Shown: in pieces, positions 14,377 to 62,442 of the stretch
How positions within the stretch are numbered: the stretch's first letter is position 1
Layout of the letters: every line of letters begins with the position of its first letter
From: Verrucomicrobiota bacterium
GTDB taxonomy: Bacteria > Verrucomicrobiota > Verrucomicrobiia > Opitutales > Opitutaceae
NCBI GenBank assembly: GCA_963205455.1
Contig: CAUJJL010000128.1
Span: 14,685-78,684, forward strand
Length of the DNA: 64,000 nucleotides
Reading direction: 5' to 3'
Position numbers and translations under genes: made by a program
The notes under the pieces: model-generated
Seen by the model: only the letters and a program-made list of their open reading frames with translations
Databases searched by the model: none
Told to the model about the DNA's origin: nothing

Positions 14377-14412
14377 ACCGCCGTGCTCTATCCACTCCTT
14401 CCTCGCTGATTC

Positions 14413-15438
14413 ATGCGCCCGCTTCGCTTTGCCCTCTTCGGTTGCGGATTCTGGTCCACGTATCAACTCGCGGCCTGGCGCGAATTAAAGGGTGCCGTAT
14501 GCGTCGCGATTTGTGATCGGAACCTCGGCAGAGCTGAAACGCTGGGTCGTCGTTTCGGCATAGAGGGGATCTACGATGATCCCGAGAAGCTTCTTGCCCG
14601 GGAGAAGCTCGATTTCGTCGACATAGTCACCGACGTTGCTACGCACGCACCGCTCGCTCGCCTCGCGGCGCTTCACGGGCTCGCCGTGATATGCCAGAAA
14701 CCCATGGCCACGTCGCTCCGCGAAGCACAGGATCTCGTCAAGTATTGCCGGAAGCGTCGTGCGCCATTTTTCGTGCATGAGAATTTTCGCTGGCAGGCGC
14801 CGCTTCGGGCTCTGAAGGCCGAACTGGACCGCGGCAAGATCGGACGGGCGTTTCGAGCCCGGATCGACTTTATCTCCGGGTTTCCGGTCTTCACTAACCA
14901 GCCGGGGCTTGCCCGGCAGGAGCAGTTTATTGTTGCCGATGTTGGCAGTCACATTCTCGACCTTGCGCGTTTCCTCTTTGGGGAGGCGGATTCGATTTAT
15001 TGCCGTACACAGCGCGTGCATCCGAAGATCAAGGGGGAGGACGTCGCCACCATTTTGATCACGACTCGCGCTGGTGCGCATGTCTCCATCAACATGGCCT
15101 ACGCTGGAAATGCACTGGAGCGAGAAGCCTTTCCCGAGACACTGGTTTTTGTCGAGGGCACAACCGGAAGCGCCGAACTTTCACCCGGCTGTGTCCTTCG
15201 CACCACCACCACTCAGGGCACACAAGTGCGTAGGGCATCGCCGCCATTCTACGCATGGGCCGATCCGCGGTATGCGGTGGTGCATTCCAGCATTGTGCCC
15301 TGCAACGCCAACCTCTTGGCCGCGGTTCAGCGTCGCGGCCGCGCCGAAACCACCGGTGAGGACAACCTGCACACGGTTCGTCTCGTCTTTGGCGCGTACA
15401 CCTCCGCCGCGCTGCATCGCCCCGTAAAGATTTCCTGA
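14413..15438 (+). CDS. Gfo/Idh/MocA-family oxidoreductase
   Basis: 341 aa. N-terminal Rossmann motif LRFALFGCGFWS. The overall pattern is that of sugar dehydrogenases of this family. Confidence 0.85.
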   Translation: MRPLRFALFGCGFWSTYQLAAWRELKGAVCVAICDRNLGRAETLGRRFGIEGIYDDPEKLLAREKLDFVDIVTDVATHAPLARLAALHGLAVICQKPMATSLREAQDLVKYCRKRRAPFFVHENFRWQAPLRALKAELDRGKIGRAFRARIDFISGFPVFTNQPGLARQEQFIVADVGSHILDLARFLFGEADSIYCRTQRVHPKIKGEDVATILITTRAGAHVSINMAYAGNALEREAFPETLVFVEGTTGSAELSPGCVLRTTTTQGTQVRRASPPFYAWADPRYAVVHSSIVPCNANLLAAVQRRGRAETTGEDNLHTVRLVFGAYTSAALHRPVKIS

Positions 15439-47857: not shown

Positions 47858-48318
47858 CAGAGGAACGCTCACAATTTTTGCGCAACTGTGCAACCATAAC
47901 CTAGAGCATGTGGGACAAATTGTAGGGTCAGGTATTACATCGTGACTTGATGATGAAGAGAGCAAGCCCAGTTTCATGTGAGCAACCGGGGAATTTGAGG
48001 CTCGCGCCAACCTATTGGTGTCAAGAATCAAGACTCGACATCGTTTGCTTGGCGCCCTCGTGCACTTAAGGGTGGAGCAGGCTTTCCTGTCTGCCATTCC
48101 CCAGCAGGACACAGACACGAATGTCTGTGCGACCCTTCCAATCCGCGGCTTACACTTCCGTTGGTACTTGCTCAACCCCGCCATCTCCGCGAGTTCGGTC
48201 AGGCTGGGCTCCTCAAGAACACCCTACTTGCACCCGGCAAAGCGCGATGACGTGCTATTGGTCCTCTCAATTGCTTCTTTTCGTCGGTCGACATCCCGGT
48301 TCTATTTTCATCCAACAA

Positions 48319-51300
48319 ATGACCCAAGCGACGAACTCTTGCTCACCCGGTCTCTCCACCATCGAAAACCCACAACAAAAATCAGGGGAAACGGCTGCTT
48401 CCTCCGGCCTCCGCGACAATCACAGCCGCGGCAAAGCCGGTGACTTCCTCCGCGTCGCTATTGCCCCCGGCTCCGAGCTTTCCTTCGTCTCGGCCTACTT
48501 CACCGTTCACGCCTATCAGGCCTTGCGCGACGAACTGGAAAGCGCCCGCAAGCTCCGTTTCCTGTTCGGCGAGCCCAAGTTCATCCGCAACATCGAGAAG
48601 GACGGCAAGCAATCCCGACAGTTCAAACTCGCCGAGAGCGGACTCTCGCTCGCCAACCAGCTCTCGCAAAAAAGTCTCGCGAAAGACTGCGCGGACTGGA
48701 TCACCCGGATGGTCGAAATCAAATCCATTGTCCGCGCCGGATTTCTTCACGGGAAGATGTATCACATCCAGGATGGCAAGGTGGCCCAAGCGCTCCTCGG
48801 CAGCTCGAATTTCACCGTCCCGGGCCTCGGACTGCAAGGCTCCGGTAACAACATCGAGTTGAATCTCATTGTTTCCGATGATCGCGACCGCCGCGATCTG
48901 CTCGATTGGTTCAATGCCCTGTGGAACGACACCTCGCTCACCAGCGATGTCAAGGATCAGGTGCTCCAGGAACTTGCTCGCCTCTATTCGAACCAGACGC
49001 CCGAGTTCATCTACTATCTTACGCTCTTTCATCTCTTCCGCCATTATCTCGACAAAGCGGACGATTCCGACAAAGCCCTCACCAAGACCGCGCTCCCTGA
49101 TACGGGCATCTGGAACGCGCTATTCTCCTTTCAGAAGGACGGAGCGAAGGCCGCCATCAACAAGATCCGCGCCACCAACGGCTGCATCCTCGCCGACAGC
49201 GTCGGCCTCGGCAAAACCTACACCGCGCTGGCCGTCATCAAATTCTTTGAGCTGCGCAATGAGCGTGTGCTCGTGCTCTGCCCGAAGAAGCTCCGCCGCA
49301 ATTGGACGGTCTATAAATCCAACAGCACGCTCAATCCTTTCGACAAGGATCGTTTCGGCTATCACGTCCTTTCCCACACCGACCTCGGTCGCGAGTCCGG
49401 CGAGGTGGATGGCCACGATCTGGCCAATTTCAACTGGGGTGCCTACGACCTCGTCGTCATCGACGAATCGCACAACTTCCGCAACAACAAGCAGGCCGTC
49501 CAGCGGCCGGGCGAACCAGAGAAACACAGCCGTTACCAGCGGCTCATGGAGGAGATCATCAAAAAAGGCCAGCGCACCAAAGTCCTCCTCCTCTCCGCCA
49601 CGCCGGTGAATAACCAGCTCGCCGACCTGCGCAACCAGATCTCCTTCATCGCCGGCGGCGATGTCACCCGTGACGCGGAGGCGGACGCCGCGTTTTCCCG
49701 CAACCTGGAGATCCCATCCGTCAAGGAGACCACTCGCATCGCCCAGGGCCACTTCACCACCTGGTCGAAGAAAAAACCGGAAGAACGCACCACCCGCGAC
49801 CTCCTCCAGAGTATCGGCGGCGATTTTTTCAAGCTGCTCGACGGCCTTAGCATCGCGCGCTCCCGCAGGCAGATCGCCACGTACTATAAGGACGAGATGA
49901 AACGCCTCGGCGGCTTTCCCAAACGCCCCGCGCCGGTGGCGATCCACCCGCCCATCGACCTCGCGGACAAGTTCCTGTCATTCGAAAAACTCGACGAGGA
50001 AATCGGCAAGCTCCGCCTCGCGCTCTACCACCCGACGAGTTTCCTGCGCGACGATCTGCCTGCGCAAGTCCGCGCCACTTATGAAGACAAGATCCTCGGA
50101 GGTTTCACCCAGGAGGGACGCGAACGCATCCTCATCGCCATGATGAAGGTGAACTTCCTCAAGCGCCTGGAAAGTTCCGTGGATTCGTTCCGCCTCACGC
50201 TCCACCGCACGATCGAGAAGATCAACACCCTCGAACAGCGCATCGCCGACTTCCAACTCCACGCGGAAAACCATCCGGAGATTGATTGGGACAACCTTAC
50301 TCCCGACGAAACCGACGACCCCGACGAGGAAACCCGGGACTTCACCATCGGCGGACGCCGCCGCATCCACCTCGCCCACCTCAAGCTCGAAGAATGGCTC
50401 CAGGCCGTGCGCCACGACCGCACCCAGCTCCAGTATCTCCACGAGAAAACCGAGAAGGTGAAACCCGAGCGCGACGCCAAGCTCGCCGAGCTGTGCGCCC
50501 GCATCGAATCAAAGGTCGCCAACCCCAGCATCAACGCCGACGCCAAGCCCATCCGCAAAGTCCTCATCTTCACCGCGTTCGCCGACACTGCGAAATACCT
50601 CCACGACCAGCTTGCCCCCTGGGCCAAGGACCACCTCGGCATTCACAGCGCGCTCATCGTCGGCGACGGGGGCAACCAGACCAGTCTCGGCAGTTCCGAT
50701 TTCGACGACATCCTCACCAACTTCTCACCCGTTTCCAAACGCCGCGCCGAGCAGCCGCGCTTCCCGCATGACGAGGAGATCGACCTCCTCATCGCCACCG
50801 ACTGCATTTCGGAGGGCCAGAACCTCCAGGACTGCGACCTGCTCATCAACTACGACATCCACTGGAACCCGGTCCGCATCATCCAGCGCTTCGGTCGCAT
50901 CGACCGCATCGGCTCCCGCAATGCCACCGTCCAGCTCGTCAACTTCTGGCCCGTCGCCGATCTCGACCGCTACCTCAACGTCAAGCACCGCGTCGAGGCC
51001 CGCATGGCCCTGGCCGACCTCGCCGCCACCCAGACCGACAACCTGCTCGATCCCCAGCAGCTCGACGACCTCATCAGACAGGACCTCCGCTTCCGCAACC
51101 ACCAGCTCAAGCGCCTGAAGGACGAAGTGCTCGACCTTGAGGACTTTTCCGACTCGCCCAGCCTCACCGACTTCTCGCTCGACGAGTTCCGCATCGATCT
51201 CCTCCAGTTCCTCGAAAGCCGCCGCGAGGAACTGGAATCCGCGCCGCTCGGTCTCTACGCGGTCGTTCCGCCAAAGGAGGATCATTGCGTCCGATCCCGC

Positions 51301-51768
51301 CCCGGCGCCCTTTTCTGCTTCCGCAGAGTGGACCAGACGCTCTCGTCAGGTTCCAGGGAAGAGCAGGCAGGATCGCCTGCACCACGCGACTCACAAAACC
51401 TCAACCCGCTCGCCCCGCATTTCCTGATCTACGTCCTGGACGACGGCACCGTCCGTTTCTCCTTCGTCCAGCCTAAGGAAACCCTGCTGCTCCTGCGTGG
51501 CCTTGCCGCCGGGCACCCCACCGCCTTCGAGAAGCTCTGCGATCTCTTCGACGCCCGCACCAAGGACGGCACCGACATGTCCCGCTACGACACCCTCGCG
51601 CGTAGCGCCCTGCGCTCCATCGAGGCCACCTTCCAGAAACGCGCCGCCGCCAGCCTGCTCTCCAGCCGCGGCGGCCTGCTGCCCACCACCGCCGAAACCC
51701 CCACCGCGAATGCGGATGACTGGGAACTCGTCACTTGGCTCGTCGTCTTATCCAGCAATACGGATTGA
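48319..51768 (+). CDS. PLD(HKD)-nuclease domain fused to SNF2/SF2 helicase (restriction-subunit-like)
   Basis: ORF 48121-51768 with a likely ATG at 48319. HKD motif FLHGKMYHIQDG..LLGSSNFT (HGK at 48748-48756). Helicase motifs ILADSVGLGKTYTA (I), DLVVIDESHNFRN (II), LLLSATPVNN (III), LLIATDCISEGQNLQDCDLLINYDIHWNPVRIIQRFGRIDRIGS (V/VI). Confidence 0.9.
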   Translation: MTQATNSCSPGLSTIENPQQKSGETAASSGLRDNHSRGKAGDFLRVAIAPGSELSFVSAYFTVHAYQALRDELESARKLRFLFGEPKFIRNIEKDGKQSRQFKLAESGLSLANQLSQKSLAKDCADWITRMVEIKSIVRAGFLHGKMYHIQDGKVAQALLGSSNFTVPGLGLQGSGNNIELNLIVSDDRDRRDLLDWFNALWNDTSLTSDVKDQVLQELARLYSNQTPEFIYYLTLFHLFRHYLDKADDSDKALTKTALPDTGIWNALFSFQKDGAKAAINKIRATNGCILADSVGLGKTYTALAVIKFFELRNERVLVLCPKKLRRNWTVYKSNSTLNPFDKDRFGYHVLSHTDLGRESGEVDGHDLANFNWGAYDLVVIDESHNFRNNKQAVQRPGEPEKHSRYQRLMEEIIKKGQRTKVLLLSATPVNNQLADLRNQISFIAGGDVTRDAEADAAFSRNLEIPSVKETTRIAQGHFTTWSKKKPEERTTRDLLQSIGGDFFKLLDGLSIARSRRQIATYYKDEMKRLGGFPKRPAPVAIHPPIDLADKFLSFEKLDEEIGKLRLALYHPTSFLRDDLPAQVRATYEDKILGGFTQEGRERILIAMMKVNFLKRLESSVDSFRLTLHRTIEKINTLEQRIADFQLHAENHPEIDWDNLTPDETDDPDEETRDFTIGGRRRIHLAHLKLEEWLQAVRHDRTQLQYLHEKTEKVKPERDAKLAELCARIESKVANPSINADAKPIRKVLIFTAFADTAKYLHDQLAPWAKDHLGIHSALIVGDGGNQTSLGSSDFDDILTNFSPVSKRRAEQPRFPHDEEIDLLIATDCISEGQNLQDCDLLINYDIHWNPVRIIQRFGRIDRIGSRNATVQLVNFWPVADLDRYLNVKHRVEARMALADLAATQTDNLLDPQQLDDLIRQDLRFRNHQLKRLKDEVLDLEDFSDSPSLTDFSLDEFRIDLLQFLESRREELESAPLGLYAVVPPKEDHCVRSRPGALFCFRRVDQTLSSGSREEQAGSPAPRDSQNLNPLAPHFLIYVLDDGTVRFSFVQPKETLLLLRGLAAGHPTAFEKLCDLFDARTKDGTDMSRYDTLARSALRSIEATFQKRAAASLLSSRGGLLPTTAETPTANADDWELVTWLVVLSSNTD

Positions 51769-51798
51769 CGGCAATATGGATTTACGTATGGTTTCCCC

Positions 51799-52077
51799 AT
51801 GAAAACAACCATCGATATTCCCGAGCCGCTTTATAAAAGGGCAAAGATCCGTGCCGTGGAGCGGGGCCAGACGCTCAAACAGCTTGTCCTGATTTCCCTA
51901 GAGCGCGAGCTGGAGGCACCTGAAACTGTCACAGAGGCTCCGACCTCCTACTGGGCCAATCGCAAGCTGCGTCCCGGATACAAAGCCGCGCTCCAGGCCG
52001 GAGCCTTTTCCGGGGGAACGGATTCCACAACCATCATTTCAGAGGATCGCGCTTCGCGGGATGAAGCTCTACTTTGA
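51799..52077 (+). CDS. vapB: Type II antitoxin, VapB-like
   Basis: 92 aa beginning MKTTIDIPEPLYKRAKIRAVERGQTLKQLVLISLEREL. Overlaps the PIN gene by 17 nt. Confidence 0.7.
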   Translation: MKTTIDIPEPLYKRAKIRAVERGQTLKQLVLISLERELEAPETVTEAPTSYWANRKLRPGYKAALQAGAFSGGTDSTTIISEDRASRDEALL

Positions 52078-52513
52078 TTCCAGCTACTTATTTCGCGTTT
52101 ATTCGTGCGAGCCGGGGCATGAAGCCGTGAAAGAGCTGCTTGTTCGGTGCACGGGACTCTTTTCAGCCTGGCACGCCCGCGCAGAATTCTCAGCCATTGT
52201 TTTGCGAAAGCGGCGGGAAGGTAGGGACTCCCCGGAAGATCTCTTTGAGTTGCATGAGCAGTTCCTGGACGAATGTCGCAGCGGGCAGGTGCAGCTGCTG
52301 CCTTTGACGGAGAACGTGTTTCAAGCCATCGAATCCGCGCTGCGCAGCGCTCCCGGCACGACATTTCTCCGGGCTGCGGATGCGATGCACCTCGCCTGTG
52401 CCGCCCAGCACGGCTTCACCGAAGTCTATTCCAATGACCGCCATTTCCTCGCCGCCGCCCCGCTCTTCGGGCTGAAGGGAATCAACATCCTTGGAAAAGA
52501 CGATCCTCAATGA
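52061..52513 (+). CDS. vapC: PIN-domain toxin, VapC-like
   Basis: 150 aa. N-terminal acidic residue in MKLYFDSSYL and C-terminal ..AADAMHLACA..VYSNDRHF, typical of PIN ribonucleases. Confidence 0.8.
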   Translation: MKLYFDSSYLFRVYSCEPGHEAVKELLVRCTGLFSAWHARAEFSAIVLRKRREGRDSPEDLFELHEQFLDECRSGQVQLLPLTENVFQAIESALRSAPGTTFLRAADAMHLACAAQHGFTEVYSNDRHFLAAAPLFGLKGINILGKDDPQ

Positions 52514-52587
52514 GGCCTCGAAATGCCCTTGCCGACACCAATGCCTTGTTTGGCTCCATCCGGGAGGAGGAAGAAGGACGAAATATG

Positions 52588-52605
52588 AAGGATGAAGGAT
52601 GAAGG
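52588..52605. repeat. Left arm of an 18-bp perfect inverted repeat bracketing the four-helix-bundle gene
   Basis: aaggatgaaggatgaagg. Its reverse complement is identical to 52953-52970. It is embedded in a purine-rich GAAGG tract (52565-52610). Confidence 0.9.
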
Positions 52606-52618
52606 AAATGCCGGCCTG

Positions 52619-52951
52619 ATGGAGCGGACGACGGAGTTTGCGCTTCGGATCGTGCGGATGTTTGTCGCGCTGCCGAAGACGGACGAGGCCCGCGTGCTTG
52701 GCAAACAGGTCCTGCGCTCCGGCACCTCCGTCGGCGCCAACTACCGGGAAGCCCGGCGCGCCCGCTCCAAGGGCGAGTTCGTCTCCAAGATCGGCGATTG
52801 CCTCACGGAACTCGACGAATCGAGCTACTGGCTCGAACTCCTCGTGCGCAGCGAAATCGTCCCGGAATCCAAACTCGCCTCCCTCCGGGACGAAAACCAC
52901 CAACTCCTCGCCATCCCCCCAACCATTTCAAAAAAGGCGAAAGGCCAATAA
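52619..52951 (+). CDS. Four-helix-bundle protein (23S rRNA intervening-sequence protein family)
   Basis: ORF 52592-52951 with a likely ATG at 52619. FALRIVRMFVALPKTDEARVLGKQVLRSGTSVGANYREARRARSKGEFVSKIGDCLTELDESSYWLELL matches the family consensus. Confidence 0.85.
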   Translation: MERTTEFALRIVRMFVALPKTDEARVLGKQVLRSGTSVGANYREARRARSKGEFVSKIGDCLTELDESSYWLELLVRSEIVPESKLASLRDENHQLLAIPPTISKKAKGQ

Positions 52952-52952
52952 C

Positions 52953-52970
52953 CCTTCATCCTTCATCCTT
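52953..52970. repeat. Right arm of the 18-bp perfect inverted repeat
   Basis: ccttcatccttcatcctt starts 2 nt after the stop of the four-helix-bundle gene. It continues as a CCTTC-rich tract to about 52990. Confidence 0.9.
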
Positions 52971-52994
52971 TTGCCTTCAACCTTTTCCCCACCC

Positions 52995-55900
52995 ATGTCC
53001 GACCTCCGCAAAGCCATCCAATCCCGCCTCCAGGCCTTCACCACCCAGCCCCTGCGGCAGGCCTCGCTGGCCCTGCTCGACACCCTCGGCTACCGCTCGG
53101 AGCGCTCCCTGCCCATCGATACGTTGACGGCGCTTCAAGAGCAGCTCGATCCCGGCCATCTCCTCCGCGAGGAAAACGCCCACCTTTCCCTCTGGAAATC
53201 CGTTCACCTCCTTTTCCAGCTCACCAAATCCGAACTTGCCCCTTCCGCCGGCAACGATCTGGGTTTGAGCCTTGAATCCCCTTTCGAGCTTCGCCGCGAT
53301 GGCAAGGTCATCGAGTCCTACCTCTTCTTCGCGGTCGATCTCCATCCGCGCTCCGACGGCCAGCCCCACAACCGCGATATCTACGGCACCATCACCCGCG
53401 CCCTCAACCGCCTTGTCCCCCAGCCGGTGCTTGTGCTCTTTCGCGAGGATTCGCGCCTCTCCCTCGCCGTCATCAACCGCCGTCGCAACCTACGCGACGG
53501 CACCCGCGACGTGCTCACCCGCGTCTCCCTCATCCGCGACATCGACTCCCGCTCGCCCCACCGCGCCCACCTCGACCTGCTCCAGCGCTTTTCCCTGCCG
53601 TCCCTCTCCGCCGAGTCCGCCATCCGCACCTTTGCCGATCTCGATACCGCCTGGCAGAAAATCTTCTCCGTTCAGGAACTCAAGGACAGCTTCTACAAGT
53701 CCCTCGCCGCCTGGTTCCGCTGGGCCATCACGGAGATCCAGCTCGCACAGCTCCCCGACCAAACGCCGGACACCGCTAAAAACCGCGACCGCGCCACCCA
53801 GGAGTTCACCGTCCGCCTCATCTGCCGCACGCTCTTCACCTGGTTCCTCAAGGAAATGCGGCTCATCCCCGCCGAACTCCTCGAACTCTACGACACCGCC
53901 GAAACCCGCCGCGTCCTCACCAAAAACGGCGACTCCCGCGACTTCCTCGACGGCAACCACTACTACCGCGGCATCCTGCAAAACATCTTCTTCCAGTCCC
54001 TCAACCGCCCGATGGACCAGCGTCGGAAATCCGGCGCGGAAGCCGCCAACGACCGCGAGGTCATCGCGCCCGATCTCAAAAAGCTTGCCTACGTCGCCAA
54101 GCAGAACCTGCCCGAAACCTTCGACTACTCGCTCTTCGATCGCATTCCCTACCTCAATGGCGGCCTTTTCGACGCCCTGCCCGAGGACAACCTGAAATTC
54201 ACCCACGAGGAGGGCAACGCCTTCCGCGTGCCCAACAAGCTCTTCTACGCCCGCCGCGAGGACGGCTACACGCTCGCAGGCGAGGGGCGCCGCGCCGCCG
54301 CCCAGCCGATGGAAGGCCTCAACCGCATCTTCGACCGCTACCGCTTCACCGTCACCGAGAACACCCCGTTGGAAGAGGATGTCGCCCTCGATCCCGAACT
54401 CCTCGGCCTCGCCTTCGAAAACCTGCTCGCCGAGATTGATCCCGACGACGAGGCCGCCGCCCAGTCCGCCCGCAAGGCCTCCGGCTCCTACTACACCCCG
54501 CGCCGCATCGTGGACTACATGGTCAACGAGGCGCTCCACCTCCACCTCCGCACCGAGTTCGAGAAAGGCGGAGCCTCCTCCGCCGATCTCCAGCTCCTCA
54601 GCCAGCTCTGCTACGAACTCGATCCCCACGCCGATTTCTCGCCCATCGCCGCCCGTGTCGTGGATGTGCTGGATGCCGTGCGCGTGCTCGATCCCGCCTG
54701 CGGCTCCGGCGCCTTCCCCATGGGCATGCTCCACCGCATGGTCGGGCTGCTCCACCGCGTCGATCCCGACAACGAATACTGGAAACAGCGCCTGCTCGAC
54801 CGCCTGCCCGCCGCCATGCGCGACGACGCCCGCCGGGGCATGGAAGGCAAAAGCTACAACTACCTCCGCAAGCTCGGCCTCATCCAGAAAAACCTCTACG
54901 GCCTCGACATCCAGCCGCTCGCCGCCCTCATCGCCAAGCTGCGCTTCTTCCTCACCCTCGTCGTCGAGCAGGATGTCCACCTCAACGATCCCGCCCACAA
55001 CTACGGCCTGGCCTCGCTGCCCAATCTCGAAACCAACCTCCTCTGCGCCAATACCCTGGCCGATGCCGGCCACGGCCTGCTCAGCGGCCCCGTGCTCGCC
55101 GACCTCCGCCGCGCCCGCGAGGAATACTACCAGCCCGGCGCCACCCGCGACCGCCGCGACGCACTCGCCACCGCCATCGGGGAAAAACTCGCCACCCTCT
55201 TCCCCGGCTTCGCCGAAAAGACCAAGGGTGTGAAGCCCTCCGGGGCCACCCAGCTGGACCGCGAGAACATGCGCCGCCAGCAGGATGCCATCTGGCTCGC
55301 TGAGTGGTTCAAGCACGCCACCCTCGCCGCCCCCTTCTTCAATGTGGAAACCTTCTTCCCGGAGCTGGTTGATTCTTCATCCTTCCACCTTCATCCTTCA
55401 CCCTTCCACATCGTCATCGGCAATCCGCCCTACGGCGGCACCAAGATCGACGACGAGGTGAAGACCTCCCTCGGCCTCGGCTCCAAAGACCCCTACGGCG
55501 CCTTCATCGCCCGCTTCCTCGGCGATCCCTCGCGCCCCGCCCCGCTCGCCGAGGGCGGCGTGCTCGCCTACATCGTCAGCGACACCTTCATGACCATCAA
55601 GACGCACCGCCCGCTGCGCGGGCAGATGCTGCGGCACCGCGTCCACAAGATGATCCGCGTCGCCGGCGACACCTTCAAGGCCACCGTCAACTGCGCCGTC
55701 ATCCTCTGCCAGCGCGGCGCGGCCCCGGAGGCCCACACTTGCCAGATGGCCGACCTCACCAATGTCTCCATCTGGGACCAGCACGAGCGCTTCCTCCACC
55801 TGCTCTACCAAACCGAGGGCTTCGCCCGCCGCGCCAACGTCTCCAACCAGACTTACGCGATCTACCACTACAAACAAAACCTGATCCAAACCAACTCGAA

Positions 55901-57683
55901 CCTGCCCTTCTTCGTCGCCTCGCCGAAGCTGTTCGCACTGATGAATGATACCACCGCTCCGGTGCGGCATGAGACCATCGGGGGAAAACGCGTGCCCGTC
56001 CGCACGGTCACGCTCAATGGCAATGCGGTGCGCTTGGTGAAACTCGGGGACATCGCCGAGGTGAAAGTCGGCCTGCAAACCGGCGACAATGACGCCTACC
56101 TCTTTCAGAATCCCGATGCCCGAGGCTCCTATCGCTCCATCGAGGATTATCGTGAGTTTCTTCTCGCCGATGCTGACCTTGAACGAATCCGCTCGGATGA
56201 GAACCTCCGCATGGAGGTGATCCAGCACGGCATCTCAAAAGACGACCGGCAATCCCCACGTTACTTCGGCGGCAGATATATCGCGCATTATGATAAGGGT
56301 GGGGAGTCGGAAAGTGAAGACGGATGGATGCCGAATTACTTCGTTCCAACCAACTACTATATTGATTGGAGCGAATGGGCGGTGAACCGAATGAAGTCGC
56401 TCACAACGAGAACGAGAAACCGTGAACAAGGTAGAACAGGTGGTGATGATTCACTAGCCTCACGCTTTCAAAATGCCGATTCGTATTTTGTCGGAGGAAT
56501 AACGTTCTCGTCCCGTGGTGTATATGCGCCGACCTTTCGTCAAAATGCGGGTGCTTGCTATGACAAGGAAAGCAGCGGGGTTTTCGTAGGGGGAAATGTT
56601 GATAATGTGCTCGCGGTGGTCGCGTCCCGGTTTGCGAAACACCTCTTGAAAGGCTTTCTACAACAAACGGTCTCGATGGATGTGGATGCGCTAAAGGAAC
56701 TAGTCTTGCCTGACAGTATGCCTATGGCTGCCAGTCTTGTTGCTTCAATCATCGGAGTGCAGCGGACCAATCCCCGTTACGACTACGCCAGCAACGAGCA
56801 GCTGGAGATCGACCGACTCGTCTATGCCGCCTACGGCTTGAACGACGGCGACATCAAGGAGGTGGAGAACTGGTATGCCCGCCGCTATCCCAAACTGGCC
56901 GAGGCCCAGCGCCGCAACCTCGCCGCCAGGCTGGGCCGGACCGAGGAGCAGTTGCTCGACCGCCCGGTGCTCCACTTCTACTGCGACGAATCCTGCCACC
57001 TGCCCGCCGACGGCGAGCCGAACATGCTGCTCGGCCTGCTGGCCTGTCCGGCGGAGCGGGTCGCCGCCAGCCATGCCGCGCTGCGCGCCCTCGCCGCCGC
57101 CAGCGGCCTGGAACCCCACTTCGAGGCCAAGTGGACCAAGCTCTCGCCCGCCCGCCTGCCACACTACCTCGCCCTGCTCGACTGGTTCTTCGCCCCGGAG
57201 CAGGAGGCGCTGGCCTTCCGCGCCCTCGTCCTGCCGGACAAGGCCCGCCTCTACGCCGCGCTGCCCGCCACCGCCCGCGACCACCTCTACTACCGCCTCT
57301 ACTACCAGCTCCTGCGCGGCGCGGTGGAGCCCGAGAACCGCCACCGCATTTTCCTCGACACCAAGGACACCCGCGGCCGCGAAAAGGTCGCCAAACTGCG
57401 CGACCTCCTCCAGCGCGACGCCGGCGACAGCCTGCAAACCGCCCGGGCCATCCAGGACCTGCAGCTCGTCCGCTCCCACGAGATCGCCCTGCTCCAGCTC
57501 ACCGACCTCTTCCTCGGCGCCATCGCCTACGCCCGCCGCGGCTCCACATCCAGCCCCGCCAAACTCGCCTTCGTCCGCGCCCTCGAAGCAAGAATCGGCG
57601 CCTCCCTCACCGCCGACACCCCGCCCGGCAGCGCCAAATTCCTCATCGCCACCGAATACGACCAGGACGCCCTCTTGCTCTGA
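52995..57683 (+). CDS. PglX/MmeI/Eco57I-like N6-adenine DNA methyltransferase with TaqI_C-like specificity region, fused to a C-terminal DUF3800 domain
   Basis: ORF 52638-57683. The in-frame ATG at 52995 (MSDLRKAIQ..) follows the four-helix-bundle gene. Motifs IPYLNGGLFD, SGSYYTPRRIVDYMV, VLDPACGSGAFP (about 54684-54716), NLYGLDIQPLAALIAKLRFFL, VIGNPPYGG (NPPY at 55422-55433), GLQTGDNDAYLF, IDRLVYAAYGLNDGDIKEVE. From about 56964: VLHFYCDESCH ... ALLQLTDLFLGAIAY (DUF3800 hallmarks). Confidence 0.85.
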   Translation: MSDLRKAIQSRLQAFTTQPLRQASLALLDTLGYRSERSLPIDTLTALQEQLDPGHLLREENAHLSLWKSVHLLFQLTKSELAPSAGNDLGLSLESPFELRRDGKVIESYLFFAVDLHPRSDGQPHNRDIYGTITRALNRLVPQPVLVLFREDSRLSLAVINRRRNLRDGTRDVLTRVSLIRDIDSRSPHRAHLDLLQRFSLPSLSAESAIRTFADLDTAWQKIFSVQELKDSFYKSLAAWFRWAITEIQLAQLPDQTPDTAKNRDRATQEFTVRLICRTLFTWFLKEMRLIPAELLELYDTAETRRVLTKNGDSRDFLDGNHYYRGILQNIFFQSLNRPMDQRRKSGAEAANDREVIAPDLKKLAYVAKQNLPETFDYSLFDRIPYLNGGLFDALPEDNLKFTHEEGNAFRVPNKLFYARREDGYTLAGEGRRAAAQPMEGLNRIFDRYRFTVTENTPLEEDVALDPELLGLAFENLLAEIDPDDEAAAQSARKASGSYYTPRRIVDYMVNEALHLHLRTEFEKGGASSADLQLLSQLCYELDPHADFSPIAARVVDVLDAVRVLDPACGSGAFPMGMLHRMVGLLHRVDPDNEYWKQRLLDRLPAAMRDDARRGMEGKSYNYLRKLGLIQKNLYGLDIQPLAALIAKLRFFLTLVVEQDVHLNDPAHNYGLASLPNLETNLLCANTLADAGHGLLSGPVLADLRRAREEYYQPGATRDRRDALATAIGEKLATLFPGFAEKTKGVKPSGATQLDRENMRRQQDAIWLAEWFKHATLAAPFFNVETFFPELVDSSSFHLHPSPFHIVIGNPPYGGTKIDDEVKTSLGLGSKDPYGAFIARFLGDPSRPAPLAEGGVLAYIVSDTFMTIKTHRPLRGQMLRHRVHKMIRVAGDTFKATVNCAVILCQRGAAPEAHTCQMADLTNVSIWDQHERFLHLLYQTEGFARRANVSNQTYAIYHYKQNLIQTNSNLPFFVASPKLFALMNDTTAPVRHETIGGKRVPVRTVTLNGNAVRLVKLGDIAEVKVGLQTGDNDAYLFQNPDARGSYRSIEDYREFLLADADLERIRSDENLRMEVIQHGISKDDRQSPRYFGGRYIAHYDKGGESESEDGWMPNYFVPTNYYIDWSEWAVNRMKSLTTRTRNREQGRTGGDDSLASRFQNADSYFVGGITFSSRGVYAPTFRQNAGACYDKESSGVFVGGNVDNVLAVVASRFAKHLLKGFLQQTVSMDVDALKELVLPDSMPMAASLVASIIGVQRTNPRYDYASNEQLEIDRLVYAAYGLNDGDIKEVENWYARRYPKLAEAQRRNLAARLGRTEEQLLDRPVLHFYCDESCHLPADGEPNMLLGLLACPAERVAASHAALRALAAASGLEPHFEAKWTKLSPARLPHYLALLDWFFAPEQEALAFRALVLPDKARLYAALPATARDHLYYRLYYQLLRGAVEPENRHRIFLDTKDTRGREKVAKLRDLLQRDAGDSLQTARAIQDLQLVRSHEIALLQLTDLFLGAIAYARRGSTSSPAKLAFVRALEARIGASLTADTPPGSAKFLIATEYDQDALLL
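55374..55409 (+). repeat. In-frame CCTTC-rich tract (2 x CTTCATCCTTC) inside the methyltransferase, directly upstream of NPPY
   Basis: tcttcatccttccaccttcatccttcacccttccac encodes SSSFHLHPSPFH. It shares the 11-mer core with the right arm at 52954-52964 and is complementary to GAAGGATGAAG in the left arm. Confidence 0.8.
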
Positions 57684-57703
57684 GTTGACACCCGCCCCAG
57701 AGC

Positions 57704-58231
57704 ATGAGCGCGAACTTCCCCGACTGGCTGCCGAAAATCATCCCCTTCGATGGCGACTGGGACGACTACCTTGGACGACTCTACGCCATCTTCGAAGGTG
57801 ACTTCAAAAACACTTCCCTCGAATATGCCGGTCGCCGCGTCTGGTATGATTCCCGCCTCGGCGATGACAGTCGCCATGGCTTTGAGGAAGGGTTCTGGCA
57901 CCTCACCACGAAGGACGAAATCATCTACGACCAAGTCCGGAGAACGAAACGAAAGGAACGAGGCCCCGATTTCCGAAGGGCGGAGAGGCTCGCTTGGTGC
58001 CGCGCCGTCATCCAGCATGCCTCGGATCCGGCGGTGCTTTGCTGGGCCTACGAGGAGGAGTTTGGCCAGATGCGCGAATACCTCTGGCTCAAGGAGCATG
58101 ACTACGTGGTTATCCTCCGCCCGTGGCAGACCCGAAAATTTGGCACCGTGTGGATGATCACGACCGCCTACCACCTCGACTACCCCAACGCCAAAACCAA
58201 CCTGCTCTCGAAATATGAGGCCCGAAAATGA
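57704..58231 (+). CDS. Hypothetical protein (175 aa), no family recognised
   Basis: ORF starts 21 nt after the methyltransferase stop. Non-repetitive sequence (..DWDDYLGRLYAIFEGDF.., ..FWHLTTKDE.., ..WMITTAYHLDYPN..). Confidence 0.6.
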   Translation: MSANFPDWLPKIIPFDGDWDDYLGRLYAIFEGDFKNTSLEYAGRRVWYDSRLGDDSRHGFEEGFWHLTTKDEIIYDQVRRTKRKERGPDFRRAERLAWCRAVIQHASDPAVLCWAYEEEFGQMREYLWLKEHDYVVILRPWQTRKFGTVWMITTAYHLDYPNAKTNLLSKYEARK

Positions 58232-58233
58232 CA

Positions 58234-58253
58234 AACCCCGCCGTGGCGGGGTT
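58234..58253 (+). terminator. GC-rich hairpin after the 175-aa gene (terminator-like, no clear U-tract)
   Basis: aaccccgcc-gt-ggcggggtt, a 9-bp perfect complement located 3 nt after the stop codon. Confidence 0.4.
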
Positions 58254-58334
58254 CGATCTCCTGCTACACATGGCAGCTGAGCTGATGGAACCCTACGCCC
58301 GCCGTCCTCGTTTGCAAGGATTTATTTTTCCCCC

Positions 58335-58748
58335 ATGACCACCCGCCACTGGCTCATCAAGTTTGCGCCCTTCCGCACCTCGTGGGAGCAGATTGTCGCC
58401 CGCGGCACTTTCACCCCGCGCGGCATCCGCAGCCCGGAGGCGCGCAAGCACCTGCGCGCCATGCGTCTCGGCGATCCCGTCCTCTTCTACCGCAGCCAGC
58501 AGGATCAGGCCGTCGTCGGCCTCCTGGAAGTCACCCGCGAAGCCTACCCGGACCCCACCAGCGCCGACCCGCAATGGCTGACATGTGACTTCGCCCCCGC
58601 GGCTTCTTTTCCTTCCCCCGTCTCCCTGGAAACGATCAAGGCGACGCAGGCGCTCTCGGACCTTCCGCTCGTTCGCCGTCCCCGCCTTTCCGTGATGCCG
58701 TTGAGTGCCACCGCATTCACAATACTTCAAACACTCGCCCAAGCATGA
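58335..58748 (+). CDS. EVE (PUA-like, DUF55) domain protein
   Basis: 137 aa. RHWLIKFAP.., ..ARKHLRAMRLGDPVLFYRSQQDQAVVGLLEVTREAYPDPT.., ..PVSLETIK.., ..RRPRLSVMPL match the EVE layout. The stop overlaps the next start (ATGA). Confidence 0.85.
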   Translation: MTTRHWLIKFAPFRTSWEQIVARGTFTPRGIRSPEARKHLRAMRLGDPVLFYRSQQDQAVVGLLEVTREAYPDPTSADPQWLTCDFAPAASFPSPVSLETIKATQALSDLPLVRRPRLSVMPLSATAFTILQTLAQA

Positions 58749-59995
58749 CTCCACCTCTCTTCACCGCATTGTCCGCGCGCCGCATGAGCGGTCTGATTCG
58801 GGCTGCCCGGCAGCGCGTTTGTTATGCCGCGCCCGGCCTGCACGAGGAAACCGCTGCACTGGCAGCCCTGAAGTCGACGAGCTCGTCCATTCCCATCACG
58901 GTGAGTTTGGATTTCGACGAGCGTACGCTGCGCTTAGGCTACGGAAGTCTCCCGGCGGTGGAAACGCTGCGCGGCGCGGGCATCGAGCCGTCGCACTCGC
59001 CCGGATTCCGCAGCGCGGTGTTGATCGTGGACGATGCGGGTTGGGTCTTCACGCGGAAGGCTCTCTACCTCGAACCCGAACCGCAAAGCGATGAGACACC
59101 GAATGCCATCCGTCTGACTTCCGGCCAGGTGCGGGAAATCCTGCTGCGCCTTTCCCCCGCCGCGCGGGCAGAGGCCGTCGCCGCCGCAAGCACCCCCGAA
59201 GAAGCCGCGCGGCTGGAGTCCATCCCGCTGGAAACCTGCGAACTGCCGCTGGGCAAGGAGCAGTTCGCGCAGGTGAAGCAGGCCATCGAAGCCGCACCGC
59301 CGGTGAAGTTTGACGTGGCACGGCAGGTGCGAGTTTTCGAGCCCTACCTCCAATATGTGGAACTTTCGCTCACCGGTGCCGCCGTGCAGCGCCACCGAGT
59401 GCGCATTCCGAAATCACTGCAAAACCTCGGTGCCTCCAAAGACCTCGAAGGCAAGCTCAAGACGACGTTCGACCTCATTGAGAAAGGCAGCTCCCTTTCC
59501 TCCAAGGTGCTGGAAGACGAACTGAACGAGATCCGCAAAAACTTCATGCCGTCGCTCGGCAAGGACCACGGGAGGGTCGTCTTGAAAGCCGCCAAGCCAA
59601 CGCTGCTGGCGCGACTCGAGGAACTGCGCAAGAAGCTGGAGACGCATCAGAATAAGGTCGAAAGCGAGCTCCAGAAAAAGCTCGATGAATCGAAGAAGCA
59701 GGTTGTGGACTACTACTTGCCGCTCGCCCGCGCTAACCCGCCGGATGCTCTCGTCGGCTCGATGCTCAAGGTGACGGATAATGACATCAGGCAATGGATC
59801 GAGTCCGAGCTGTCCGACGTGTTTCCCGACGCGAAAGAACTGATTCACAAGATGACGCTGGAGGACCGCTATAAGGACGTGACCTTCGAGACACTAAACC
59901 GCGCCGATTTCCTCAAGTCAGTGAAGGCCGCCTTCCCGCGTATTGATTGGGACAAACCTTTCCACGATTTCAAGGCGGCAGGGGAACTGAAGTAA
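58745..59995 (+). CDS. Hypothetical protein (416 aa): N-terminal PLD-like scaffold without HxK, C-terminal K/E-rich coiled-coil-like region
   Basis: Translationally coupled to the EVE gene. The N-terminus ..LIRAARQRVCYAAPGL..IPITVSLDFDE..LRGAGIEPSHSPGFRSAVLIVDDAGWVFT resembles a PLD/NgoFVII-type fold with FRS where HxK is expected (pattern-level inference only). The C-terminus is LEELRKKLETHQNKVESELQKKLDESKKQ. Confidence 0.6.
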   Translation: MTPPLFTALSARRMSGLIRAARQRVCYAAPGLHEETAALAALKSTSSSIPITVSLDFDERTLRLGYGSLPAVETLRGAGIEPSHSPGFRSAVLIVDDAGWVFTRKALYLEPEPQSDETPNAIRLTSGQVREILLRLSPAARAEAVAAASTPEEAARLESIPLETCELPLGKEQFAQVKQAIEAAPPVKFDVARQVRVFEPYLQYVELSLTGAAVQRHRVRIPKSLQNLGASKDLEGKLKTTFDLIEKGSSLSSKVLEDELNEIRKNFMPSLGKDHGRVVLKAAKPTLLARLEELRKKLETHQNKVESELQKKLDESKKQVVDYYLPLARANPPDALVGSMLKVTDNDIRQWIESELSDVFPDAKELIHKMTLEDRYKDVTFETLNRADFLKSVKAAFPRIDWDKPFHDFKAAGELK

Positions 59996-60000
59996 GATGA

Positions 60001-60303
60001 CCGGAAACGCGTGTCCTTGTCGTGAAAGTGGAACGGAGGTCGAACGCGCTGGTGTATGAGCTGTATTTCCCGGAGGAGGTGAAGGGAAGTTTGAAGGAGG
60101 AAGGAGGAAGTTGGAAGGGGAGTCTGTTCGACCTGGTCGAGGCCGCCGGCCTGCCGGACGTGACCGCCCTGCCGGAGCCGGACTGCCTCCCGCGCCTGCG
60201 CCGGAAGTTCGAGGAACTCCACGACGGCGCCCACCCGCTGCGCCGCGCCCTCGGCCAGCTCCAAACCCTCGAAACCATCCGCATCATCGAAGGCAGGGCG
60301 TGA
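60001..60303 (+). pseudogene. 3' remnant resembling the C-terminus of an Eco57I/type IIG-like methyltransferase
   Basis: The frame opens right after the TGA at 59998. ..RSNALVYELYFPEEV.. parallels IDRLVYAAYGLNDGDIKEVE of the large methyltransferase. There is no N-terminal catalytic part. The tail (LRRKFEELHDGAHPLRRALGQLQTLETIRIIEGRA) lies in the 124-bp duplication. Confidence 0.4.
60073..60120 (+). repeat. In-frame GAAGG-rich tract inside the methyltransferase remnant
   Basis: gaggaggtgaagggaagtttgaaggaggaaggaggaagttggaagggg encodes EEVKGSLKEEGGSWKG. It has the same purine-strand flavour as the left arm of the four-helix-bundle cassette but is less exact. Confidence 0.6.
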
Positions 60304-60308
60304 ACACG
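60185..60308 (+). repeat. 124-bp direct repeat, copy A
   Basis: By my alignment it is identical to 61461-61584 except G at 60300 versus A at 61576. Confidence 0.85.
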
Positions 60309-61460
60309 CCCTTCCCATCGCCGTCGATGCCTCGATACGCCGGAAAACACGGCGCGCCGAGGATGACCGCCTTGCCAGCGCCGCAGGCGTTCCATACTTC
60401 AGTGCCAACACGCGTTCCAACCTCGGCCCATTCTTCAACGCCAACACACGATCCAGCCCCAGCCCTTTCATCAGCGCCAACGGCGCGCTCCAACCCCAGC
60501 CCAGGGCAACGCCCTGGGTATTCGGCACCCAAGACCATCCAAGCCCTGAAAGGGCGACCCAAGGCCTGTTCCAATCCCATGCACAACACCCGATCCCCCC
60601 TTGTTTCGGTGCGGGTCTTTCTGGACCGCCACGGCCTGGCCTGCACGAACGGTCTGTGGGGGGCTGAATCGCCCCTTCAGGGCTTGAAATGGTGGGTGAC
60701 CTATGTTCCCAGGGCGTTGCCCTGGGCTGGCATGATTCGCCCCGTCGGGGCTGAGTCCACGCCCATTCCTCAGCGCCAACGGCGCGCTTTAACCCTGGCC
60801 CAGGGCAACGCCCTAGGTCCACAACGGCGCGATCCAACCCCAGCCCGGGGCAAGGCCCTGGGTCCACAACGCCAAAATCGATCCTAGCCCTGAAGGGGCG
60901 ATTCAAACCATGCCCCAATCGCTCGCCCGCCTTTACGTCCATCTCATTTTCAGCACCAAGCACCGCGAACGCGTCATCACCGACGCCGTTCGTCCCTCCC
61001 TGCACGCCTACATGGCCAGGGTGCTGCAAAATTTTCGCTGCCCGCCCGTGCTCATCAACTCCGTCGAAGACCACATCCACATCCTCTTTGAACTGGGGCG
61101 CACCGTCTTCATCAGCCAGGCCGTCGAGGAGGCCAAAACCACCGCCTCGAAATGGATCAAGACCCAGGGGCCGGCCTTCGCCGGGTTCGCGTGGCAATCG
61201 GGCTACGGGGCCTTCTCCGTCAGCGAATCGAATGTATCGGCCGTGCGGGAATACATTGCCGGGCAGGCCGAACACCACCGGCACAAATCATTTCAGGAGG
61301 AATACCGGGCATTTCTCGAACGTCACGGCGTGGCTTTTGATGAACGGTATGTATGGGATTAGCCCGCCCCTTCAGGGCTTGAAATGGTGGGTGACCTATG
61401 TTCCCAGGGCGTTGCCCTGGGCTATCATGGGCCGCCCCTTTGGGGCTGGATCCATGCACC
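60309..61460. mobile_element. RAYT-like transposase plus REP/REPIN-type palindrome array inserted between the two 124-bp repeat copies
   Basis: At least 5 copies of the 19-nt hairpin CCCAGGGC-nnn-GCCCTGGG (60500-60518, 60708-60726, 60799-60817, 60844-60862 degenerate, 61403-61421). A 59-nt identical direct repeat lies at 60670-60728 and 61365-61423. A 19-nt perfect inverted repeat pairs 60666-60684 with 60886-60904. Confidence 0.8.
60910..61362 (+). CDS. IS200/IS605-family Y1 (HUH) transposase, REP-associated (RAYT)-like
   Basis: 150 aa. LYVHLIFSTKHRE, EDHIHILF (HUH), FAWQSGYGAFSVSESNVSAVREYIAGQAEHH. The ORF is bracketed by a 15-nt perfect inverted repeat, agccctgaaggggcg (60886-60900) and cgccccttcagggct (61365-61379). 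Confidence 0.85.
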   Translation: MPQSLARLYVHLIFSTKHRERVITDAVRPSLHAYMARVLQNFRCPPVLINSVEDHIHILFELGRTVFISQAVEEAKTTASKWIKTQGPAFAGFAWQSGYGAFSVSESNVSAVREYIAGQAEHHRHKSFQEEYRAFLERHGVAFDERYVWD

Positions 61461-61584
61461 GCCTCCCGCGCCTGCGCCGGAAGTTCGAGGAACTCCACGA
61501 CGGCGCCCACCCGCTGCGCCGCGCCCTCGGCCAGCTCCAAACCCTCGAAACCATCCGCATCATCGAAGGCAGGGCATGAACACG
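61461..61584 (+). repeat. 124-bp direct repeat, copy B (contains the start codon of the ArdC-like gene)
   Basis: See copy A. An ATG lies at 61576-61578, where copy A has GTG. Confidence 0.85.
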
Positions 61585-62442
61585 ATGGAAACCCAACCCG
61601 ATCTCTTCGCCGCACAGGATGAGGAAGTCGCTCGCTCCCTGCTGGACAAGTTGCTGGAAGACTCGAGGCTTTACCGAGCCAGCAAGGATTACCTTGAGCT
61701 GCTGGAGTTCACCAAGCGCCTGCGGAACTTCGCGCCCTTCAACGCCATGCTGCTCCATGTGCAGAAGCCCGGCCTGACCTACGCGGCTTCGGCCTACGAC
61801 TGGGAGTCGCGCTTCGGCCGCCGTCCGAAGGAGAACGCCCGCCCGCTGCTCATCCTTTGGCCATTCGGCCCGGTGGCGCTCGTGTATGACGTGCAGGAAA
61901 CCGAGGGGAAGGCACTGCCCCGGGACGTGGACAGCTTCTTTGCCCGTGGAGCCATCACCTCGGAACGGATTCCCGAGTTGATCAAAAAGATGGCACGTCG
62001 GAACATCGCCTGCGCCTGCTTCGACGGCGGGGATGCAAACGCAGGCTCCATCCGCGTTGTGAATCGTGCGACGAAGGAGGAAGACGCCTCGTATTCCATG
62101 CAGGTGAACCGGAATCACTCCGCGCCTGTTCAATTCGTCACCATCGCGCACGAACTGGCACACCTGTTTCTTGGCCACCTCGGCCCGGACAAGAATCTCA
62201 ACATCCCCGAGCGCCCGCGCCCCGACCATGTGCAGGAAGAACTGGAAGCCGAATCCGTCGCCTACCTCGTCTGCGCCCGCAACGGCGTGGAGTCGAAGTC
62301 ACAAACCTATCTGACAAAATTTGTGGAGAAAAACACGACCGTTGAGAAACTCGACATCTACCAGGTCATGCGCGCCGCCGGACAGATCGAAACCCTGCTT
62401 GGCCTCTCATCGCACACCCGTTACGAGAAGCCTCCCCGGTGA
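61576..62442 (+). CDS. HExxH zincin metallopeptidase-domain protein, ArdC-like (N-terminal ssDNA-binding-like region + C-terminal protease-like region)
   Basis: ORF 61384-62442, but the first 64 codons read through REP/duplicated DNA. Likely ATG at 61576 (MNTMETQPDLF..). ..FAPFNAMLLHVQKPGLTYAASAYDWESRFGRRPKENARPLLILWP.. resembles the ArdC N-domain. IAHELAHLFLGH plus QEELEAESVAYLVCARNGV resemble the ArdC-type protease motifs. Confidence 0.55.
   Translation: MNTMETQPDLFAAQDEEVARSLLDKLLEDSRLYRASKDYLELLEFTKRLRNFAPFNAMLLHVQKPGLTYAASAYDWESRFGRRPKENARPLLILWPFGPVALVYDVQETEGKALPRDVDSFFARGAITSERIPELIKKMARRNIACACFDGGDANAGSIRVVNRATKEEDASYSMQVNRNHSAPVQFVTIAHELAHLFLGHLGPDKNLNIPERPRPDHVQEELEAESVAYLVCARNGVESKSQTYLTKFVEKNTTVEKLDIYQVMRAAGQIETLLGLSSHTRYEKPPR

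Follow-up and report, generated by a model that had tools for sequence, protein, structure and literature searches.

Why should a DNA methyltransferase (MTase) end in a DUF3800 domain? The question is raised by a gene in a 64,000-nucleotide (nt) stretch of a Verrucomicrobiota bacterium (GenBank assembly GCA_963205455.1, contig CAUJJL010000128.1), here called the window, whose numbering is used throughout. The open reading frame (ORF) at 52995-57683 on the plus strand is uninterrupted and, read from the ATG at 52995, encodes a product of 1562 amino acids (aa). The original prediction, made from the sequence alone, suggested that the tail could be the missing effector of a type IIG-like bifunctional enzyme. 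We found instead that residues 1 to ~1290 are the N6-adenine MTase and specificity subunit of a two-component restriction-like system, that residues 1325-1562 are the A subunit of an A/B cassette (PDC-M04, the RlfA/RlfB pair of phage P1), and that this cassette, self-contained elsewhere, is repeatedly nested in modification-dependent restriction systems.

The gene is composed as follows, with conservation given for a set of 111 fused proteins (the window protein and 110 homologues):

52995-57683, plus strand: the fused gene, an MTase/specificity module, a linker and a putative DUF3800 nuclease domain (ORF, Pfam, PADLOC)
53376-53663, plus strand: a weak N-terminal DUF4391-like match (aa 128-223; Pfam E 0.0047, below cut-off)
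54687-54716, plus strand: MTase motif I, LDPACGSGAF, AdoMet binding, invariant in 108-111 of 111 fused proteins
55419-55439, plus strand: MTase motif IV, GNPPYGG, catalytic, N6-adenine type, with N-P-P-Y invariant in 111 of 111
56355-56714, plus strand: the hypervariable C-terminal segment of the MTase body (aa 1121-1240), identity to the 110 homologues 0.27-0.47
56868-56966, plus strand: a conserved basic linker, NWYARRYPKLAEAQRRNLAARLGRTEEQLLDRP (aa 1292-1324), mean identity 0.75, predicted helices
56967-57680, plus strand: the DUF3800/PDC-M04A/RlfA-family domain (aa 1325-1562), predicted RNase HII-like fold (Pfam, PADLOC, AlphaFold2, Foldseek)

The peptides on which the original prediction was built lie where it had placed them: IDRLVYAAYGLNDGDIKEVE, read as the end of the MTase, at aa 1272-1291 (nt 56808-56867), VLHFYCDESCH from aa 1325 (nt 56967) and SHEIALLQLTDLFLGAIAY from aa 1494 (nt 57474), with D1331-E1332 in the N-terminal signature and Q1501-x-x-D1504 in the C-terminal one. 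The frame does continue past IDRLVYAAYGLNDGDIKEVE, for 271 aa and not the ~240 aa first estimated. Pfam Eco57I (PF07669) matches aa 632-888 with 51.6 bits, and Pfam and PADLOC together define the MTase as the Eco57I/MmeI gamma-class N6-adenine type. Residues 1327-1512 align with the Pfam DUF3800 profile (PF12686) over its full length (positions 1-148 of 149), scoring 33.3 bits in the full protein (E 9e-8) and 37.2 bits with the tail alone (E 6e-9) against a gathering cut-off of 21 bits, and PADLOC PDC-M04A matches aa 1327-1551 (E 1.9e-61). The predicted assignment of the tail to DUF3800 is far beyond chance. At the other end of the protein, aa 1-440 form a conserved domain (identity 0.42-0.85) that contains the DUF4391-like stretch, a match that is stronger in two relatives (P0189 and the MTase of locus L058); Pfam and PADLOC scans of this region gave no nuclease family, only the sub-threshold DUF4391. 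The MTase catalytic core has a mean identity of at least 0.8 compared with the 0.27-0.47 of aa 1121-1240, a segment that, judged from this alignment, is probably part of the target-recognition region.

An error of sequencing or assembly that joined two separate genes would produce the same ORF. However, an identical 1562-aa protein (P0268) has been recorded from an independent assembly, and more than 100 clusters (90% identity) hold proteins of 1510-1585 aa that are 53-88% identical, nearly all with both PF07669 and PF12686. These clusters come from Verrucomicrobiota (Akkermansiaceae, Terrimicrobiaceae, Puniceicoccales), Sumerlaeia and Nitrospirae, and a genome scan added Nitrosospira and Lentisphaerales to the carriers. 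Fragments from many metagenomes cross the junction in one frame, and all six of six long cluster representatives are Eco57I-DUF3800 fusions. No support for an artefact was found; one split and one degraded relative exist. In the split one, the locus L001 of a Verrucomicrobia metagenome-assembled genome, the gene is interrupted by a 1115-bp IS630-like insertion sequence (IS) element with inverted repeats and a TA duplication, and excising this element in silico again gave a fused ORF, of 1567 aa. The other (P0342), a close relative listed without PF12686, is fused, with a DUF3800 part degraded after ~100 aa. In view of the identical independent protein, the more than 100 diverged full-length fusions and the IS-caused split in L001, we rejected an artefact, to which we assign virtually no chance, and the fusion noted in the original prediction is genuine.

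The fused gene is followed by a second gene:

57704-58231, plus strand: the M04B/RlfB-family partner, 175 aa (PADLOC PDC-M04B, E 7.5e-40), 20 nt after the fused-gene stop

In 86 of 88 loci the ORF immediately behind DUF3800 matches the M04B profile, the two exceptions being contigs that end there; M04B is an obligate partner of DUF3800 in this subfamily. The description of DUF3800 as a normally stand-alone protein, therefore, fails for this subfamily. For the family at large the description, which also held that no function was assigned, is only roughly right: the literature calls DUF3800 an RNase H-fold nuclease and knows of fusions to retron reverse transcriptase (RT) and, in Cas12a2/a3 loci, to TPR domains. 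The candidate system PDC-M04 consists of A, a DUF3800 protein, and B, a protein of ~165 aa (Payne et al., 2024, bioRxiv 10.1101/2024.01.29.577857), and PDC candidates were defined by their embedding in BREX, DISARM and type I restriction-modification (R-M) systems. The window matches this scheme: the tail is A, the next gene is B, their order is the canonical one and the locus around them is a modification-based defence locus; it differs in that A is a C-terminal MTase domain and not a separate gene, and PDC-M04 is itself a prediction.

The same pair is found in phage P1, where rlfA/rlfB (L090; NC_005856.1, 51740-52908) are homologous to window positions 56967-58231. RlfA and the tail share 38% identity over 226 aa (BLASTP E 3e-59), RlfB aligns with the M04B profile (hhalign probability 99.3%, E 2e-20), and the two genes abut in the order of A and B; RapA/RapB of P7 are the same pair. 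By homology, the long-known P1 rlfA/rlfB genes belong to the PADLOC candidate defence family PDC-M04. Their name, 'replication-linked function', derives from their position after repL. In contrast to the window pair, they are free-standing and have no MTase link; the lytic replicon repL/oriL immediately precedes them, and they stand behind a C1-controlled operator. This place is a variable cargo slot, occupied by other genes in P1-like plasmids, and the A/B pair is present in 107 plasmid records, mostly from E. coli.

An AlphaFold2 model of the tail, built on 70 homologues, reached a predicted local distance difference test (pLDDT) score of 91.2 and a predicted TM-score (pTM) of 0.88. As the original prediction had advised, the model was compared with known structures. 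The best PDB match in Foldseek was the archaeal RNase HII 1eke (E 2e-5, prob 1.0), followed by human RNase H2A and RNase HIII, with TM-scores of only 0.38-0.46 for the top matches; Argonaute PIWI and RuvC ranked far behind, and among viral models the tail matched a DUF3800 protein and RNase H proteins. The tail can be confidently modelled as an RNase HII-like fold, in agreement with published statements that DUF3800 has an RNase H2-like fold. In the model, strand 1 ends with D1331 and E1332 and a later strand with D1455, and D1504 is part of a helix. Of the 111 fused proteins, 110-111 keep each of these four residues and E1377, as do 120-121 of the 121 family representatives, which are 33-81% identical, and by this conservation all five carboxylates are candidate catalytic residues. 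The Q of the C-terminal motif Q1501-x-x-D1504 occurs in 108 of the 111. The model of M04B is also of high quality (pLDDT 94.5); Foldseek found no relative of it in the PDB (best E 0.18). Searching the PDB by sequence, with the full protein and with profiles of the tail and of M04B, gave nothing meaningful.

The stretch joining the two halves shows signs of constraint. Among the 110 fused homologues, mean identity is 0.75 in the linker region (aa 1281-1320) compared with 0.5-0.66 in the DUF3800 domain and 0.27 in aa 1201-1240, so that the linker is more conserved than either flank. Distant fused relatives such as P0189 retain its WYARRYPKL helix, which the unfused MTase of L058 lacks. Upstream of the linker the MTase is subject to turnover: contig L005 is 98.8% identical in nucleotides to the window from 56775 onward and diverges upstream, its positions 1-291 being completely different from window 56355-56775, with the breakpoint just before the conserved YDYASNEQLEIDRLVY helix. 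By alignment, a recombination breakpoint lies here, where the variable region, which presumably determines specificity, comes to its edge; the pattern is consistent with an exchange of the target-recognition region. Another relative, P0001, also differs in the MTase variable segment. Downstream, M04B diverges much faster than A between close relatives, with identities to the window for A and B, respectively, of 86 and 73% in L009, 87 and 39% in L010, 82 and 42% in L006 and 60 and 42% in L008.

How often such a connection to a modification system arises was addressed by the survey of fusions and neighbours proposed in the original prediction. When 1.84 billion cluster representatives were searched exhaustively with the tail, 919 hits (clusters at 50% identity) were obtained; among the best 150 of these, ~11 were long fusions or fragments, the remainder being proteins of ~235 aa. 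A scan of one genome per species gave at least 563 tblastn-confirmed matches to the subfamily. The MTase bodies of fused proteins down to 41% identity are colinear with the window MTase, which points to one old fusion in that family. A further fusion protein, P0255 (L089, 10001-14674), has a DrmMI-like MTase (PADLOC E 1e-65) that shares only the catalytic core with that of the window (25% identity over ~200 aa), and its locus holds a DruE/DrmA-like helicase with MZB (DUF1998), an SNF2 helicase and, after the fused gene, M04B. Because the MTase body is non-homologous to that of the window outside the core, P0255 is an independent fusion. A neighbour-joining domain tree was too shallow for counting fusion events, and we did not rely on it. 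Unfused pairs also occur next to modification genes: 11 HsdS and 10 HsdR proteins were counted among 112 immediate neighbours, and the order hsdS-A-B-hsdR on one strand was verified in three loci (L067, L074 and L078). In a gamma-proteobacterial locus (L058), genes of the same helicase and MTase families come first, then an ABC ATPase gene and then A and B as an unfused pair. Collectively, these data suggest that the A/B cassette works together with DNA-modification systems.

The system to which the fused gene belongs includes a helicase gene upstream, and further genes lie between and behind:

48121-51768, plus strand: a PLD (HKD) nuclease-SNF2 helicase, 1215 aa (Pfam PLDc_2, SNF2-rel_dom, ResIII, Helicase_C)
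51799-52513, plus strand: a toxin-antitoxin-like pair, a 92-aa ORF (51799-52077) and a PIN-domain protein (52061-52513; Pfam PIN E 3.6e-13)
58335-58748, plus strand: a stand-alone EVE-domain protein of 137 aa, from a modified-base reader family (Pfam EVE E 7e-31)

The best PADLOC model for the helicase was 'HKD+Snf2' C3a139 (E 5.7e-113), the HmaA model reaching only E 1e-27, and its motifs include HGKMYH...GSSNFT at aa 210, GLGKT at aa 362 and DESH at aa 448. Each of the five loci that extend far enough upstream (L001, L009, L011, L014 and L015) has a PLD-SNF2 homologue before the fused gene, and the PLD catalytic motif (HxK, GSSNFT) of these homologues is kept. We therefore rejected the idea that DUF3800 replaces a decayed PLD nuclease and regard it as an addition. 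The product of 48121-51768 is likely the translocase-nuclease partner of the MTase, and the base system is a two-component restriction-like one of PLD-SNF2 helicase and Eco57I-type MTase. With this nuclease next door and its motif intact, an effector is not missing, contrary to the original prediction.

The base system resembles DISARM class 1, Hma and type ISP in its logic but is a member of none. With DISARM class 1 (DrmD and DrmMI), BREX (PglX) and the DUF499-centred Hma system it shares the pairing of a helicase of the SNF2 type and a large MTase of the Eco57I type. However, the NCBIfam BREX_1_MTaseX (PglX) model scored 71 bits against a cut-off of 500, the helicase scored 150 bits against a DrmD cut-off of 610, the island has no ATPase gene as in Hma, and HmaA carries a C-terminal PD-(D/E)xK domain, whereas the nuclease of the window helicase is an N-terminal PLD domain. 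No BrxA/B/C, PglZ or BrxL genes were found between 42 and 64 kb, no DrmA/B/C, BrxA/B/C/L, PglZ or DUF499 ATPase among the ORFs examined at 48.1-62.4 kb, and no DUF1998/MZB gene in the window locus. With scores far below the cut-offs and partner genes not found, membership in BREX, DISARM and Hma was rejected. NCBIfam gave no equivalog for any component. No RT domain was detected in the ORFs scanned at 48-62 kb, and Rfam scans at gathering and permissive thresholds found no retron or DUF3800-associated RNA near the gene.

The best explanation, which we put forward tentatively and rate somewhat short of an even chance, is that an A/B defence cassette embedded in the restriction-like system was fused to its MTase and serves as a second-line nuclease coupled to the complex. 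A/B would be a metal-dependent nuclease that entered the restriction system before it became joined to the MTase, and the fusion would tie its location or activity to the state of the MTase-helicase complex. It might be silent on an intact complex, and stalling of the complex on phage, or inhibition by phage, might release or activate it, following a guard-type logic as for PrrC in EcoprrI. PrrC is likewise a latent nuclease inside an R-M operon, and unfused A/B pairs occupy the same hsdS-hsdR slot; it differs in having no kinship of sequence or fold, being an ABC-ATPase-type anticodon nuclease and not an RNase HII-like domain with a small partner, and only in the window is the link covalent. 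We propose that M04B, which diverges so much faster than A, could have a regulatory or sensing role. As substrate, RNA or a duplex that contains RNA is most likely, rather than plain double-stranded DNA (dsDNA), a guess drawn from the RNase HII-like fold and from the partners of other DUF3800 proteins: retron multicopy single-stranded DNA (msDNA), Cas12a2/a3, Cas13 and eleven structured RNA motifs. Known cases are the RT-DUF3800 fusion of type VII retrons, TPR-DUF3800 with Cas12a2/a3 and Csx32 with Cas13, which share with the tail the Pfam family and the RNase H2-like fold and serve as accessories or effectors in defence, the role predicted for the tail. They differ as other subfamilies with other partners (RT and msDNA, TPR, kinase), and with neither MTase nor M04B.

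Several points weigh against this coupling. About 90% of the cluster representatives are unfused and most unfused pairs are not beside a recognisable R-M gene, so the cassette does not need an MTase. A defence role for the RlfA/RlfB (PDC-M04) family is a prediction only, and in P1 both rlfA and rlfB were non-essential in a CRISPR interference screen and were assigned no function. The match of the carboxylates to the RNase HII DEDD site is modelled from secondary-structure position and not from superposition, the role of M04B is a guess given that no PDB structure is related to it, and the guard-type coupling is an analogy to PrrC, not homology. The sole representative of the DrmMI fusion, P0255, has Gly for the first catalytic Asp (FCGESWH), whereas P0252, its closest stand-alone relative, has Asp there; P0255 would be either an inactivated copy or affected by a sequencing error. 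Finally, locus L006 holds an intact A-B-EVE set without an MTase. In this Akkermansiaceae-like contig, an 84-nt piece (3288-3371) of a 127-nt direct repeat of the window (60182-60308 and 61458-61584; shared part at 60220-60303 and 61496-61579) abuts the start codon of the stand-alone DUF3800 gene, which suggests a secondary loss of the MTase in which the repeat element may have taken part by separating the cassette from it.

That A/B survives without the MTase in L006 would also fit a fusion of no mechanistic meaning, A/B being an independent defence module or a selfish one that came to lie in a defence locus, was joined to the MTase by loss of a stop codon and was kept for co-expression and co-transfer. 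This is a serious rival, although we consider it unlikely: unrelated defence genes are often embedded in such loci, the literature has proposed that linkage brings a selfish benefit, the locus itself holds an embedded PIN pair, and L058 combines the same helicase-MTase family with A/B genes that are unfused and set apart by an ABC ATPase. Yet the fusion has been kept across MTase divergence to ~41% identity, the linker is more conserved than the nuclease domain and a second fusion arose independently, all of which exceeds the expectation for neutral read-through. That second fusion, to another Eco57I-type MTase, would also suit a fuller form of the reading in the original prediction, in which DUF3800 would be the primary restriction nuclease, guided by the MTase recognition domain to unmethylated sites, as would the covalent link, the intact catalytic residues in both halves and the conserved linker. 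Like the type IIG/IIL enzymes Eco57I and MmeI, the window protein combines a gamma-class N6-adenine MTase with a recognition region in the same polypeptide. Type IIG enzymes, however, carry an N-terminal PD-(D/E)xK nuclease, and no such domain was detected here; the PADLOC type IIG profiles align with the window protein only from profile position ~313 onward. Moreover, the system has a separate helicase-nuclease, and a PLD-SNF2 gene with intact HxK adjoins every fused gene that has upstream sequence, DUF3800 always occurs with M04B and often without any MTase (P1 rlfAB and most loci), and the RNase HII family acts on RNA-DNA junctions and not on both strands of dsDNA. We consequently judge a type IIG-like enzyme to be quite improbable. 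The broader suggestion that the domain acts on nucleic acid at recognised sites keeps its first half, in that the model makes a catalytic role on nucleic acid plausible, and loses the second, with A/B independent of this MTase's recognition domain.

The RNase HII-like fold and the position of rlfA/rlfB after repL/oriL behind a C1-controlled operator would also fit a housekeeping function, in which A/B removes R-loops or RNA primers for the system or element and is not an effector. This we hold to be very improbable, as the P1 genes are dispensable for lytic growth and are replaced by other cargo in P1-like plasmids, and members of the family are over-represented in restriction systems, retrons and CRISPR loci. 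A bolder form of the second-line nuclease, no better placed in our judgement than the type IIG-like enzyme, is that the tethered nuclease, M04B and EVE make up the second recognition arm of a new kind of restriction system, with the MTase bringing the nuclease to DNA sites where it would cut RNA:DNA hybrids (R-loops, transcription or replication intermediates) or modified phage DNA that escapes PLD-SNF2. If so, one complex would restrict both unmodified and modification-protected invaders, and A/B would do the same job for type I systems, DISARM-like systems and prophage P1.

The DUF3800 fold, its defence associations and the PDC-M04 candidate had been published or catalogued. In the searchable literature we found no description of the MTase fusions, of the obligate B partner or of the identity of the pair with P1 rlfA/rlfB; a literature search returned no text describing PDC-M04, and searches for DUF4391 and PF12686 were uninformative. 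DUF3800 is widespread and recurs beside retrons, Cas12a2/a3, Cas13 and structured RNAs, and the RlfA/RlfB-type pair adds a recurrent, sometimes covalent, link to the MTase of restriction-like systems. Its presence in phage P1 and ~100 E. coli P1-like plasmids provides tractable models, and the candidate catalytic residues and the conserved linker are defined and can be mutated. A functional coupling would be another case of layered immunity within one operon and might yield a programmable RNase-H-type nuclease; a coupling without function would make the locus a clean example of a defence cassette captured by gene fusion.

Further features were noted around these genes:

58232-58255, no strand assigned: a 10-bp GC-rich hairpin directly after M04B, with a T-run on the minus strand only
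58745-59995, plus strand: a 416-aa protein with no Pfam, PADLOC or NCBIfam family

A scan for promoters and terminators gave results at chance level, the overall count of terminator-like sites included. In this clade the place behind M04B is consistently taken by an EVE gene, which follows M04B in nine other loci (L001, L005, L006, L008, L009, L010, L013, L014 and L015) and was not seen in the DISARM-like locus L089. The only other loci with the 416-aa protein were L005 (99%) and L015, where it lies 9 kb away, and it is doubtful that it is a member of the system. Genes upstream of 48.1 kb are housekeeping genes. At ~48 kb, where the defence island begins, the plus-strand GC skew, at about 0 to +0.1 before this point, falls sharply to values between -0.18 and -0.25, and the island genes (48000-58000) are all on the plus strand. 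The PIN (VapC-like) pair is embedded between the helicase and MTase genes; the same slot in L001 contains two PhdYeFM and PIN pairs, and two IS630-like elements lie in that system. L001 also has a second, weaker DUF3800-family gene (13582-14427, 281 aa), a few genes downstream of the first.

Behind the island, the region 60180-61600, which includes the 127-nt direct repeat, is repeat-dense. Palindromes like repetitive extragenic palindromes (REP), CCCAGGGCGTTGCCCTGGG, score as the Rfam small RNA (sRNA) 'Acido-Lenti-1' at 60708-60752 and 61403-61447 and flank an IS200-like Y1 transposase ORF (60910-61362). The ORF of an M78 (IrrE-like) peptidase at 61384-62442 probably starts further downstream, because its annotated 5´ end overlaps an Acido-Lenti-1/REP match. 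The repeat block looks like a REP and REP-associated tyrosine transposase (RAYT) unit, or REPtron, which would make Acido-Lenti-1 a REP element and not an sRNA.

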